A stretch of 35,824 nucleotides of DNA, taken from positions 1 through 35,824 of IMG/VR virus record IMGVR_UViG_3300025849_000101; one strand, 5' to 3'. Shown here piece by piece: positions 175 to 28,190 of this stretch (its first letter is position 1; the number at the start of each line of letters is the position of its first letter). The position numbers were made by a program, and so were the translations under genes. Under the pieces are notes generated by a model, which saw nothing but the letters and a program-made list of their open reading frames with translations, searched no databases and was not told the DNA's origin. Origin of the DNA: a virus. Taxonomy: Duplodnaviria; Caudoviricetes.

Positions 175-984
175 TTAGAAGTTAAAAGATAGACCTGCTG
201 TTGGTGTCCAAGTTTCTGCATCTGTGTCATAATCAACACCTGCGCTTAGTTCTGCGCCTGCTACGTCCATTGTGTACTCACCACCTACGTGCTGTAGTCT
301 GTTAGCATCTGTACCGTTGATATATGCTGTTAATCCGCTTACGTCTACTGTACCTTCATATGCCCAATCTTCTGCATCTGTGTCATATGTTAATGCACCG
401 CCTGCTGTTGCCATACCTAATTCTACGCCAGCAACTTCTGCACCTAGTACAGTGTTTTCACTTGTGCGGTTGTAGTCCAATGCACCTGTAATTGCAAAAC
501 GATCCATATTGATTGTGTATGCACCTTGTACATTACTTACTTCTGTTATATCTGTTGTATAATCAGTTAAGCCAACAGCTACACTTGCACTACCAAAAGA
601 CAATGCTACTGATTCAGTCATTGCTGGTTTTGCTAGTGTTCCGTCTGCCGCTGCATTAGCTGCTGTTTCTGGCATTAAGTTGTTGTCATCGCCAACAGCT
701 ACGCCTACGCCTGCTACTTCTGTGCCTACAGTCCATGTATCCAATGTTAATGAATTACCGTCTGTTGCTTTAAAGTCTAAGTCTACTGTTGCTAAACTAC
801 CTGCATCGATGTCTAATTCGATACCCATTGTTCCGCCAGTTTTACCTGCTGTTGTTTCAGCAAAGTCTAAGTTTACTGCACCAGAAATTACTGGTCCTGT
901 TGGAGTAGCTACTGCTACTGTGTCTTCAGCCATTGCTGATGTGGCGGCCATTGCGGCTACCATTGCTAGTACGAGTGTACGCAT
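175..984 (-). CDS. Rhodobacterales-type outer-membrane porin
   Basis: Signal peptide (..TSAMA/E), alternating amphipathic beta-strand pattern, acidic composition, C-terminal Phe (GLSFNF) typical of BAM substrates. Confidence 0.8.
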   Translation of the reverse strand: MRTLVLAMVAAMAATSAMAEDTVAVATPTGPVISGAVNLDFAETTAGKTGGTMGIELDIDAGSLATVDLDFKATDGNSLTLDTWTVGTEVAGVGVAVGDDNNLMPETAANAAADGTLAKPAMTESVALSFGSASVAVGLTDYTTDITEVSNVQGAYTINMDRFAITGALDYNRTSENTVLGAEVAGVELGMATAGGALTYDTDAEDWAYEGTVDVSGLTAYINGTDANRLQHVGGEYTMDVAGAELSAGVDYDTDAETWTPTAGLSFNF

Positions 985-1112
985 TGAGGGGTTTCCTTCT
1001 TATTTTTTTATTTGGTGAGCGGGGGTGGGTTTTTGTTGCTCACTAAGTAATTATAGTATTCTACATATTTTTTATGTAGTTAAGAGCGGATTTTAGCTGA
1101 TTTGCGGAATAA

Positions 1113-1146
1113 TAAAAAAGAGTGTTACTTTTCAGCAACACTCTTA
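1113..1146 (-). terminator. intrinsic terminator of the tmRNA transcript
   Basis: AAGAGTGTTGC-TGAAAA-GTAACACTCTT followed by TTTT on minus strand. Confidence 0.8.
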
Positions 1147-1305
1147 ATGCTATGTTTGGTAACAAGGCCTAACTACCTCGTAACAGCCTAGGCTGCTAAT
1201 GCGAAATTTTCATTTGCAATTATAGTTTTTGTTCGCGATAACCGTGCTTACATCCGGATAACTCCACTAACTCTATTAACTACCAGTCGATCCTATTTCG
1301 CCCCC
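1147..1305 (-). ncRNA. ssrA: two-piece (permuted) tmRNA, coding piece; tag (A)ANENFALAA at 1217-1188
   Basis: 5' end GGGGGCGAAATAGGATCGAC at 1305; tag frame GCA AAT GAA AAT TTC GCA TTA GCA GCC TAG; 3' boundary approximate. Confidence 0.93.
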
Positions 1306-1317
1306 ATCATAAAGACA

Positions 1318-1443
1318 CTATCTATCTTTGTACTTTACCATAATCGTCCATTCTGGATGTTTATTTACAAGCTCACTTGCTTCTAACAAACTATCATAGG
1401 TGTCTATAATACTTCCAGTCTTTAGATTCATTACATAGTACAT
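1318..1443 (-). CDS. 41-aa ORF inside the tmRNA intervening segment
   Basis: MYYVMNLKTGSIIDTYDSLLEASELVNKHPEWTIMVKYKDR*; AAGGA SD 7 nt before ATG; fills almost the whole intervening segment. Confidence 0.7.
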   Translation of the reverse strand: MYYVMNLKTGSIIDTYDSLLEASELVNKHPEWTIMVKYKDR

Positions 1444-1455
1444 TTAGTGTCCTTA

Positions 1456-1516
1456 TGGTGGAGGCGCCGGGTACCGCCCCCGGGTCCTGTATAGCGTTTG
1501 AATTGCTTCAACGTTA
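1456..1516 (-). ncRNA. ssrA: two-piece tmRNA, acceptor piece (T-arm and CCA)
   Basis: GGACCCGGGGGCGGTACCCGGCGCCTCCACCA; CGCCTCC pairs with GGGGGCG giving G3-U70 and A73 alanine identity; 5' boundary approximate. Confidence 0.93.
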
Positions 1517-1521
1517 TGCTT

Positions 1522-1529
1522 TATTTATA
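1522..1529 (-). promoter_or_regulatory. T4-like late promoter driving the tmRNA
   Basis: Exact TATAAATA just upstream of the acceptor piece. Confidence 0.7.
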
Positions 1530-1535
1530 ACACTT

Positions 1536-1844
1536 CTAAGCGAAGATGTCAAGTTCTTTTTCTTGTTTAGTAGATACTTTTTTCTTAGGTGGTTCAATTT
1601 TGCGTAGCCAACTGTCAGCAATATATGCTTTAGGTGACGGACCTAACTGTATGTTTAGATCGTCTGCTTCAATCCACCAAAAGTGATCATGAACTGCACA
1701 ATGGCACTTCATTCCGAACGCTTCAAACTGTTCGCCTTCTTTAAACTTGCCAATGTATTCTGATACGTTAACAATGCGTCCTATGTTTTTAGTATTAATA
1801 CTAAAAACTATTACCGCTTTATCACCTTCATTTACGTTCACTCT
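1536..1844 (-). CDS. hypothetical protein
   Basis: ORF track 1536..1856; start uncertain (GTG at 1844 or ATG at 1856). Confidence 0.65.
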   Translation of the reverse strand, partial: RVNVNEGDKAVIVFSINTKNIGRIVNVSEYIGKFKEGEQFEAFGMKCHCAVHDHFWWIEADDLNIQLGPSPKAYIADSWLRKIEPPKKKVSTKQEKELDIFA

Positions 1845-2327: not shown

Positions 2328-2494
2328 AATCCTAACAAACCCCAACCGTGGTTAGCGATTGCGTTTGTTATAATAGCAAGGCAGGTTGCAATGTGTAACA
2401 GTACCCAAACGGTACGTACCATTGCAACCCAGTCTGCTTTACGATTGTTGTCGTAGGCTTTGGTGCCTATTGCTTTACACCAAATTTCCCACAT
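2324..2494 (-). CDS. small membrane protein (56 aa)
   Basis: Manual translation MWEIWCKAIGTKAYDNNRKADWVAMVRTVWVLLHIATCLAIITNAIANHGWGLLGL; TAATG coupling upstream. Confidence 0.75.
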   Translation of the reverse strand: MWEIWCKAIGTKAYDNNRKADWVAMVRTVWVLLHIATCLAIITNAIANHGWGLLGL

Positions 2495-2670
2495 TACATC
2501 GCGTTCTTTTTATCCTGGATTTCTTTTCTGCGTTCTTTTGTAAGTTTACCTAGATCTCCTAGTGCCTTACGTGCTCTTGCCGCAGATGCTTTAACACCCT
2601 TCTCTTCGAACGTTGCGTGTTCGGTCAAGTAGTTGTTATATGCTTGTACGATTTCATCGTGATTAGTCAT
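2494..2670 (-). CDS. histone H1-like Hc1-family protein (58 aa)
   Basis: MTNHDEIVQAYNNYLTEHATFEEKGVKASAARARKALGDLGKLTKERRKEIQDKKNAM; KG.K....RARK pattern of the Hc1 N-terminal domain; AGGAG SD. Confidence 0.75.
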   Translation of the reverse strand: MTNHDEIVQAYNNYLTEHATFEEKGVKASAARARKALGDLGKLTKERRKEIQDKKNAM

Positions 2671-24172: not shown

Positions 24173-24841
24173 ATGGATAAAGAAGTTCTTGGTACTATTG
24201 AGCGTTATAAAAAGCCAGTGTATATTGGTGACTTAGATTTCTCTCATCCTAGAGTAATTGGTATGATTGAATATGTTCAAAAATTATTTCTAAATGCGCC
24301 AGCGCATCATTTTATTGGAACATTTTTATACTTCTATTATATTGCACCTAAATTAAAAAGTCCTATTACAATTAGTGCTTACGGTGATAGTATAACTACT
24401 CATCCTGGTCAAGGCAGGCTATTAGGAAGCTATTTTAGACAAGATAAAACTATACCTGCGTTATTAATACCATTACATTCATCAAAAACAGAGATAGAAT
24501 TGTTAGATGCTATTTCAAATAATAAGAAAAGTTTTAAAAATAAAGTATTTTCTTATAATAATAAAAATCATCATGGGATTAGTACTACTGAATTTAAAAA
24601 ATACTTTCATCCTACACAAGACAGAATAGATTATGAACTAGAGAAAGATTCTTTAGTTAATGATATGTTGAACAAGCATGGTAGAATTAAATGGAACATT
24701 AAAGATAGAGATTCTATTAGCCTAGGCGAAGGTAAAAAAATAAAAGTAAATATAACATGTGACGTAGAAGGATTTTACCATAGCGTATTCTACCTTGCAT
24801 TCAACCATTATAAAGAAAGTAAGAAGTTTAAAATATTATGA
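24173..24841 (+). CDS. AT-rich hypothetical protein
   Basis: 222-aa ORF, ATGA-coupled to hemA. Confidence 0.7.
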
Positions 24842-26037
24842 CAATAGACAAAACCCTATTCCATGAAAAGATAAAGCAATTAAAACAGGAAGGCAAGTAC
24901 CGTGTATTCAATGATATACTACGCGAGCGCGGAAAGTTTCCTAAAGCTATTTGGTATGGACCTTATAACATCAAAGAGATTGTAAACTGGTGTTCAAATG
25001 ATTATCTTGGAATGGGACAAAATTCTGTTGTCATTGATGCAATGCACACAGCATTGAATCAAACAGGTGCTGGTAGTGGAGGCACTCGCAACATTGGAGG
25101 AACTTCACACTATCACGTTGCGCTTGAACATGAATTAGCATCATTGCATAGCAAAGAAGGATCGCTATTGTACAGTTCAGCGTATGTCGCAAATGAGTGG
25201 ACGCTCATCTCCTTAAAACAAATCGTTACCGACATTGTGTTTTTAAGTGATTCAAAGAATCACGCCAGTCTCATTCAAGGTATAAGACACAGTGGTGCTG
25301 ACAAACTGATATGGACGCACAACGACATGGGAGATCTCGAGGATAAACTAAAAGAAGTAGCCTTAACTGGCGGTACACCTTGTATCGTCTTTGAGTCTGT
25401 GTATAGCATGGATGGTGATGTCTCTCCTATCCAAGAGATTTGCGATCTAGCTACCAAGTATGGGGCAATGACATATATTGATGAGGTTCACGCCGTAGGC
25501 TTATATGGTGAACAGGGAGCAGGTTATTTAGAAAAACTAGGTCTGCAACATCAAGTCGACATTGTAAACGGTACGCTAGGTAAAGCCTTTGGTGTTACTG
25601 GTGGATATATAGCAGCGGATGCAGTCATTATTGACGCTATCCGTTCTGTAGCATCTGGCTTTATTTTTACTACTAGTCTTAGCCCTGTACTTTGTGCAGG
25701 TGCTTTGGCTAGTGTTAAATATTTAAGAGATCATCCACAGCTTAGAGACGAACATCAAGCTAGAACACGTAAATTAAAGAATATGCTAAAAGATAGGGGT
25801 ATAGAAGTCCACGAGGATGCTTGTACCCATATCGTTCCTGTTATGATCAGGGATGCATTTAAATGTAAAGAAATAAGCGATACTTTACTTAATGAATATG
25901 GTATCTATATTCAACCAATAAACTTCCCTACTGTCGCTGAAGGGACTGAACGACTTAGAATAGCACCGACTCCATATCATAATGATGCGATGTTGGCTGA
26001 CTTAGTCAACGCACTGAAGGAGGTGCTTAATATATGA
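24838..26037 (+). CDS. hemA: 5-aminolevulinate synthase
   Basis: [33 protein letters not shown] (PLP Lys), FIFTTS, ERLRI. Confidence 0.95.
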
Positions 26038-27635: not shown

Positions 27636-28190
27636 TTAAAAAAATAAGTTTATCATTTGATGGCTGCTTAACTCTGTTGCTTGTTTCCATTGTTTTTCTC
27701 CATCATAATTAAATATTATATTATCATTTCCGTCTGCTGTCAACCAACTATTTTCTGCTCGGTAGGGAGGCTGTCCTTTTAATTCTAAATCTAATTGTCC
27801 TGGTTGCCATCCGCATACACCAACAGCAATTCTCCAGGCACTAGGCTGTTGACCAAAAGACATTTTTTCAAACATAAAATCATCACTTGTAATCATTAGC
27901 CCTTTACCTGCAATAGTTGAGCTTGTACTTTCAAAGTCGTCAGTGTGTAACATAAAAACTGTTCTAGTTGATAGTGGACCTCCGAAGCGCATTTTTTCTG
28001 GACTCTCAGGAAAAGACGAAAATCTTTTTGTTAAAAGAAAATCATTTACACTTAGGTCTGCTGGTTTGTTTAAGATAATTCCCTGTGTACCTTTGTCGTC
28101 ATCACTGAATACATATATTACACTTTTGTCGAAGGGGTTATTTTTAGGAAGGTTAGGGTGAGCTATCAAAAGTTTACCTTGTCTTGACAC
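27636..28190 (-). CDS. YqgE/AlgH (DUF179) family protein
   Basis: LLIA.P, F..SVI, G.ILNKP, GGP, GW.PGQL..E, W. Confidence 0.9.
   Translation of the reverse strand: MSRQGKLLIAHPNLPKNNPFDKSVIYVFSDDDKGTQGIILNKPADLSVNDFLLTKRFSSFPESPEKMRFGGPLSTRTVFMLHTDDFESTSSTIAGKGLMITSDDFMFEKMSFGQQPSAWRIAVGVCGWQPGQLDLELKGQPPYRAENSWLTADGNDNIIFNYDGEKQWKQATELSSHQMINLFF

Follow-up and report, generated by a model that had tools for sequence, protein, structure and literature searches.

What is a protein-coding gene doing in the part of an RNA precursor that is normally cut out? This question is raised by the window, that is, the whole stretch of 35,824 nt of viral DNA analysed here, which carries on its minus strand a permuted tmRNA gene with an intervening segment (spacer) of 150 nt holding an open reading frame (ORF) under selection, whereas the spacer of such genes is typically short and non-coding (median 30 nt among the bacterial matches listed). 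Alongside many unknown genes, the window encodes a ribonucleotide reductase, a glutaredoxin, a histone-like protein and a 5-aminolevulinate synthase, and by this content it reads as part of a large phage, for which the alpha-type tmRNA and the 5-aminolevulinate synthase would point to an alphaproteobacterial host. The 5-aminolevulinate synthase, a heme-pathway auxiliary gene in a phage-like contig, lies at 24838-26037(+) and matches TIGR01821 with 573 bits. The Hc1 histone-like protein is found at 2494-2670(-) (Pfam E = 7e-10), a YqgE/AlgH-like protein scoring below cut-off at 27636-28190(-), and a porin-like ORF, recognised by inspection and with no family match, directly after the tmRNA terminator (175-984(-)).

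The permuted tmRNA gene and its closing stem

Judged by every feature tested (score, piece order, acceptor stem and tag), the locus is a permuted tmRNA gene. The Rfam model tmRNA_permuted (RF04321) matches 1517-1188(-) with 108.2 bits, against a cut-off of 47, and the alpha_tmRNA model scores 88.8 bits at the same minus-strand locus; ARAGORN missed the permuted tmRNA at 1517-1188(-) and called nothing there. The 7-bp acceptor stem with its G3-U pair, the T arm and the CCA are all present, and the tag frame has the hydrophobic ending in AA-stop that membership of the permuted tmRNAs requires. In the nine distinct loci carrying the ORF in the spacer the alanine G-U pair is kept throughout, the T stem and acceptor stem covary, and the tmRNA is intact in both structure and tag frame. 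The same piece order, CCA, G-U pair, tag frame and hairpin-closed spacer characterise the permuted tmRNA genes of Alphaproteobacteria and marine phages (RF04321, RF01849; Melnitz ssrA).

Promoter-like site, acceptor piece, spacer with its ORF, coding piece and terminator-like hairpin form one unit of about 410 nt (Table 1). The TTGACA-N17-TATAAA arrangement is also found upstream of eight of the nine distinct loci; a consensus scanner, which requires the -10 element to end in T, omitted the site. Downstream of the tag stop and ahead of the terminator, the window has a short hairpin region (1160-1185(-)) that is conserved in L363 and L366.

Table 1. Features of the permuted tmRNA locus in the window, in the order of transcription
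Feature	Position	Strand	Remarks
Promoter-like site, TTGACA-N17-TATAAA(TA)	1522..1552	-	Upstream of acceptor piece; read from sequence
tmRNA acceptor piece	1456..1517	-	Rfam RF04321 alignment
T arm	1483-1467	-	Part of acceptor piece
Acceptor strand	1466-1460	-	Part of acceptor piece
Discriminator and CCA	A1459; CCA 1458-1456	-	End of acceptor piece
Intervening segment (spacer), 150 nt	1306..1455	-	Between CCA and G1 (1305)
5' arm of closing stem	1445..1455	-	Holds Shine-Dalgarno (SD) sequence AAGGA (1454-1450)
41-aa ORF	1318..1443	-	Small beta-beta-alpha-beta protein, no known family; homologues, dN/dS, model
3' arm of closing stem	1308..1320	-	Opens with ORF stop codon
tmRNA coding piece	1146..1305	-	Rfam alignments; 3' end approximate
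Tag reading frame, ANENFALAA-stop	1217-1188	-	Sequence and Rfam alignment
Intrinsic terminator-like hairpin, 12 pairs, with T run	1110..1145 (hairpin 1145-1118)	-	

The spacer arms 1455-1445 and 1320-1310 pair and prolong the acceptor stem; the pairing is interrupted by a single C-A mismatch, where the first C of CCA stands. The fold is more stable than all of 200 shuffles (z = -5.9, a value that takes in the tRNA-like domain too), and over the nine distinct homologous loci the named structure pairs in 98.3% of cells, against 39-47% with slid partners, including two compensatory pairs inside the spacer stem. The preliminary description had drawn attention to complementary spacer ends that extend the acceptor stem; the pairing stands, as it covaries in nine loci, but it is nothing special, since most bacterial spacers listed are, by inspection, short hairpins of the same geometry. 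The closing stem itself is ordinary, and it is the content of the loop that is unusual.

The SD sequence in the 5' arm deserves separate consideration. TAAGG is invariant in all nine loci while its partner bases differ among them, both G's of the SD facing U, C or a mismatch, which argues that the SD is kept as a sequence beyond the needs of pairing.

The spacer ORF and its protein

Both the sequence and the Rfam alignments bear out the earlier reading that the spacer, 1455-1306(-), is almost filled by a 41-codon ORF led by an AAGGA SD, and the same holds for the placement of its signals: the SD (1454-1450), 6 nt before the ATG, lies in the 5' arm, and the 3' arm opens with the TAG stop (1320-1318). 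A protein search with this ORF retrieved 19 homologous clusters of 66-93% identity, and locus searches retrieved 40 viral and 47 metagenome loci with a related ORF, some contigs being in both collections. Leaving out the window's own record (L401) and an edge fragment (L447), 85 loci were considered, 16 of them in tmRNA spacers and 69 free-standing in small-gene arrays. The spacer copies comprise 14 complete ones and nine distinct coding sequences (CDS), one identical to that of the window, and the free copies 34 distinct CDS, or 32 after trimming. A viral contig (L361) carries the identical locus.

Frameshifts, stops and a loss of codon-level conservation in homologous segments had been named beforehand as observations that would speak against a gene. 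The reading frame is unbroken in 14 of 14 complete spacer copies, the sole indel being an in-frame 3-nt insertion, and one spacer copy starts with GTG instead of ATG. By pairwise Nei-Gojobori counts, in which the pairs are non-independent, dN/dS is 0.127 among the nine distinct spacer CDS and 0.129 among the 32 free ones. Variable columns fall 14/8/25 over the three codon positions of the distinct spacer CDS, and along the eight edges of a spanning tree of spacer copies alone there are 39 synonymous and 32 non-synonymous steps, with synonymous sites making up 18%. To judge from these substitution patterns, purifying selection acts on the ORF as on a protein gene, both inside the spacer and outside it.

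The two kinds of copies differ in the source of their SD, which for spacer copies is the arm of the tmRNA stem, whereas free copies have no such arm; instead, at each of the 29 distinct junctions the start of the free copy lies no more than 4 nt from an upstream stop. On the tree, spacer copies are interspersed with free ones, so the selection seen among the spacer copies could partly predate their capture. A single spacer clade is compatible with the tree (AU p = 0.246, not rejected), and several independent entries of the gene into spacers are thus not established. Upstream of many free copies (L365-L375, L377-L387, L392 and others), and also in the L016 spacer, unrelated-looking genes share the ending Gly-Gly-Glu-His-Glu-stop, whose stop overlaps the next start and which is likely a recombination handle of the small-gene arrays.

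The predicted model of the 41-aa protein has a pLDDT of 92 and a beta-beta-alpha-beta topology. The family is small, with seven matches in 1.84 billion protein representatives, of which the two long ones are weak repeat matches. No homologue was found in 50,697 cultured-phage records or among PDB sequences, and no named family in the ESM Atlas (best score 0.86). Foldseek searches of PDB and BFVD with the model gave no match at E <= 0.001; the top rows from BFVD are weak matches to uncharacterised small phage proteins (TM about 0.8). By eye, the model may resemble the RNase H1 N-terminal/Cauli_VI RNA-binding domain, which is absent among the Pfam, PDB sequence and fold matches; the best VIA-align Z, 5.0, is within noise for a model of 41 residues. 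Matches to PHROG 385 (E = 0.02) and to Pfam GCV_H are at noise level. Pfam NUMOD1 (PF07453) was considered as a further candidate, with a weak match (E = 0.02) in 5 of 16 family members, and was rejected: the score of 15.6 bits is below the cut-off of 22.8, and the model shows one helix followed by a strand, whereas NUMOD1 has a hairpin followed by a helix-turn-helix. For a predicted model of this size, the Foldseek, BFVD and VIA-align matches give no basis for a function, and we take the protein to be a non-essential accessory phage protein.

The spacer as an exchangeable slot

The spacers of permuted tmRNAs were compared in two samples, the 120 bacterial (118 parsed) and 120 viral loci (119 parsed, 111 distinct) among the matches listed. 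Only 2 of the 118 bacterial spacers among these matches reach 90 nt, neither with an SD-led ORF, whereas the viral spacers listed have a median of 84 nt and 52 of 111 are at least 90 nt long. Among the 52 long viral spacers listed, 16 hold an SD-led ORF covering at least 60% (five of the 16 being one family), against an expectation of 1.7 +/- 1.2 (maximum 6) in 200 arm-preserving shuffles and three on the opposite strand. The other 36 fail this strict test, with the ORF running past G1 in some and a non-coding spacer in others. In a wider set of 173 distinct viral and metagenome spacers, which includes an SD-biased scan, an ORF with 22 codons or more and a coverage of at least 60% is present in 102; these ORFs fall into 34 clusters, among them one that stems from a wrongly called frame in the largest family and several singletons, likely chance frames. 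At least nine cargo clusters have a homologue outside spacers, counted in loci whose own spacer had been parsed and masked. An SD core lies within the first 22 nt in 13 of 19 cargo clusters, compared with 9 of the 65 arm types that enclose no cargo (Fisher p = 1e-5).

Closely related tmRNAs differ in what they carry. Bodies 100% alike over 182 nt (L066/L103) and 98.9% alike over 182 nt (L024/L063) enclose unrelated ORFs, and a pair 99.5% alike (L043/L027) has an ORF in one spacer and none in the other. The window's arms are found around four other proteins and one empty loop of 29 nt (L196, L125, L190, L232, L167), and the window's ORF is found in tmRNA bodies only 70-87% alike, with exact start and stop placement and an invariant SD. 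By these sequence comparisons, the content of the spacer is exchanged between phages. In the window the end of the slot has stops in all three frames; of 104 viral spacers, 17 have three frames closed there and 69 have two. Where all three are closed, an insert is predicted to gain promoter, SD and stop. The stops of cargo ORFs cluster at this end, either 12 nt or 1 nt ahead of G1 or 13 nt past it. The proposal that the loop is a safe harbour for variable cargo genes is well matched by the excess of SD-led ORFs and by near-identical tmRNAs with unrelated ORFs, and it can be taken further, because purifying selection acts on the cargo within the spacer and the phages' small-gene arrays are its source. 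Such arrays of large phages are modular and moron- or cassette-like, and in them, too, short genes with common short ends and overlapping stops and starts can be exchanged; the tmRNA slot, by contrast, is embedded in an RNA gene, from which it takes promoter, SD-bearing arm and stop codons.

Other spacers showed further arrangements. The ORFs of L014, L061, L065, L066, L081 and L012 (spacers of 108-118 nt) and of L103 have no stop before G1, and in the cultured phage Melnitz an SD-led frame of 54 codons likewise starts in the tmRNA spacer and passes G1 (L448:1552-1716). These frames take in the first 13 to about 42 nt of the mature coding piece, so a cut by RNase P would leave a non-stop message. 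The Melnitz frame resembles the viral cargo of L016 (22 residues, 55%, E = 7e-6 within the spacer set). In the largest cargo cluster (L033, L045, L082, L121; spacers of 159-192 nt), the arm SD is followed by a leader ORF of about 18-30 codons, which overlaps out of frame a membrane-protein-like main ORF (offset modulo 3 equal to 1 in 42 of 43), an overlap that may reflect translational coupling or frameshifting. Six viral permuted tmRNAs with a canonical T loop and a beta-type look (L127, L155, L159, L179, L200, L204) have an AGGA arm and then an ATG in the spacer, and the 111-nt spacer of L096 is tRNA-like by eye, with D-arm- and T-arm-like motifs.

No report of a protein gene in a tmRNA spacer was found in the literature searched, outside the scope of which lie Keiler 2000, Williams 2002, the 2004 article by Sharkady and Williams, and Mao 2009. 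In its accessible sections, a 2025 database paper (PMC11915505) records one tRNA gene and one repeat as spacer inserts, placing protein genes only in group I introns; its supplement makes no mention of 'Phage' or 'IVS'. The available parts of PMC4131195, PMC3978253 and PMC2245857, and of PMC10117765, which concerns the tag frame, hold no precedent for spacer protein genes, and PMC9004378, in the portions available, describes the Melnitz ssrA without its spacer, the word 'intervening' being absent. The Melnitz GenBank record lists the tmRNA with no CDS inside.

The closest analogue is offered by the ORF-bearing intervening sequences of 23S rRNA (S23p; Coxiella, Leptospira), described in the part of PMC4990558 available to us. 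These too are stem-closed pieces of a structural-RNA precursor that hold an ORF and are removed without ligation, excision being predicted in our case. They differ in being cut by RNase III, where tmRNA spacers are probably removed by RNase P and 3' processing (PMC3985003, as far as its accessible text goes), and in having one cargo family, where tmRNA spacers have many unrelated ones; the 41-aa cargo, unlike theirs, also lives free-standing. The Coxiella ORF has a poor SD, is decaying and is reported as probably not made in vivo (PMC4990558, available part), whereas the tmRNA spacer ORF has a conserved SD and a dN/dS of 0.13. Complementary arms are present in our locus, which is located in a tmRNA and not in 16S or 23S rRNA, and the protein has no Pfam match to the S23p four-helix bundle, its model being beta-beta-alpha-beta. 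By analogy, the tmRNA spacer may resemble an ORF-bearing rRNA intervening sequence in its working without being one. Standard tmRNAs with group I introns can likewise carry a protein gene inside the removed part of the pre-tmRNA: 36 of 883 intron forms contain one for a homing endonuclease (PMC11915505, accessible sections). Those introns lie in the T loop, self-splice with ligation and carry a mobility enzyme as cargo, whereas our locus has no Rfam intron match, an intact T loop, no nuclease and a predicted maturation free of ligation.

Predicted translation of the precursor and alternative readings

Folding of growing transcripts, computed as equilibrium prefix folds with no kinetic model, suggests when the ORF might be read. 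The predicted cost of opening the SD is 0.9-2.8 kcal/mol for transcript 3' ends from 1428 to 1314, 6.3 kcal/mol at 1310 and about 13 kcal/mol once the acceptor stem forms. With the SD predicted to be open only until the 3' arm has been made, translation is likely co-transcriptional, and ribosomes can likely load only on nascent RNA; at usual elongation rates this leaves a few seconds for loading. The earlier suggestion that translation and tmRNA folding compete is upheld by this folding computation (0.9-2.8 rising to about 13 kcal/mol), with any regulatory purpose of the competition being hypothetical.

Given a conserved gene in a spacer that is normally cut out, one transcript would likely act as a short-lived messenger first and as a tmRNA precursor afterwards. 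The reading that we favour, with somewhat better than even confidence, is that the spacer holds a conserved gene in an exchangeable slot and that the precursor is translated briefly during transcription, before the stem hides the SD and processing destroys the message. Genes would enter the slot by recombination at its short conserved ends. The SD would be cheap to open for about 115 nt of transcription (3' ends 1428-1314) and then locked, and a ribosome loaded in this period would terminate precisely where the 3' arm begins, leaving the stem to close. A cut by RNase P at G1 and 3' trimming would then free the CCA and the spacer would be degraded, by comparison with two-piece tmRNAs, the maturation of which probably involves RNase P and a 3' processing enzyme (PMC3985003, accessible text). 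Since the spacer would be lost during maturation, each transcript of a strongly made RNA would yield about one copy of the protein or a few, and the product would be an accessory phage protein of the ordinary kind that plays no part in tmRNA biology.

The same geometry could instead serve regulation, a ribosome on the spacer delaying stem closure and RNase P cleavage, so that the ORF would be a sensor and its protein secondary. The SD in the 5' arm with the stop at the 3' arm, the clustering of cargo stops at the slot end and the steep predicted accessibility switch are what this coupling would lead one to expect, but the clustering is partly automatic, since in 86 of 104 viral spacers the slot end leaves at most one frame open. 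We consider the coupling unlikely, given that the amino-acid sequence is under the same purifying selection as in free copies and that short, empty spacers suffice for maturing the same RNA in bacteria and many phages. About as unlikely, in our view, is that the spacer merely tolerates inserts and the gene is untranslated there, its conservation stemming from recent or repeated copying of free genes. That 69 of 85 copies are free-standing agrees with such silence, as does the finding of four of them, with flanks often short, 0.45-0.62 kb from a tmRNA with a non-coding spacer; the SD is predicted to be fully paired in the folded precursor, and the Coxiella rRNA spacer ORF (PMC4990558, available part) and the tRNA gene and repeat inserts on record in tmRNA spacers (PMC11915505, accessible sections) offer precedents. 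Against it stand the synonymous excess among the spacer copies themselves, the exact start and stop placement with an invariant SD in tmRNA bodies 70-87% alike, and the enrichment of the SD across unrelated cargo.

The preliminary description had also envisaged a mini-mRNA released by processing, linear or circular, and translated afterwards. ORF, SD and stop do all lie within the excised 150 nt, but both arms remain on that piece, in which the SD is predicted to stay paired (unpaired probability 0.04, opening cost 6.6 kcal/mol); moreover, no 5' leader is left before the SD, and several cargo families stop beyond G1 and would be incomplete on a released spacer. These points make the mini-mRNA quite improbable. 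Least probable of all, and largely refuted, is a selfish element, in which the ORF would be a remnant or helper targeting the tmRNA, such as a NUMOD1-type DNA-binding piece of a homing endonuclease. The weak NUMOD1 match in some family members and the occurrence of homing endonucleases in tmRNA group I introns (PMC11915505, accessible sections) are outweighed by the score below cut-off, the model lacking a helix-turn-helix, the lack of a long nuclease-fused form among the seven matches in 1.84 billion proteins, and cargo that is unrelated between phages.

At the RNA level, the spacer ORF, or a sequence varying little from it, is covered by metatranscriptome contigs from three studies; one of these contigs, identical over 1273-1463, bridges G1 and the ORF (run X2, depth 2.9). 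This weakly supports the existence of the precursor as RNA, the runs having been chosen for holding this stretch and the contigs, which may hold DNA, showing no strand, ends or level. Almost nothing else of 20 kb is covered at 97% in runs X2 and X9. Joints in RNA contigs that skip the spacer were considered as ligation and rejected: their sides are 20-36 nt long with foreign letters in between, and the joints belong to tmRNAs of other organisms.

Beyond brief translation of the precursor, a possible though doubtful extension is that the tmRNA gene would work as an expression cassette with a timer, in which the stem meters a small constant dose per transcript of whichever protein has been captured, ribosome traffic on the spacer paces maturation, and cargo reading through the RNase P site yields non-stop messages that are tagged by its own tmRNA, giving a feedback between the level of a phage protein and the capacity for ribosome rescue. 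On the reading that we favour, a housekeeping-RNA precursor would be used both as messenger and as gene-exchange site across many aquatic phages. Genes in tmRNA spacers can escape annotation, as in the Melnitz record. The locus would also be a compact system for the competition of transcription, ribosome loading and RNase P processing on one RNA, and the passengers in the tmRNA locus may help to explain why phages keep tmRNA genes.
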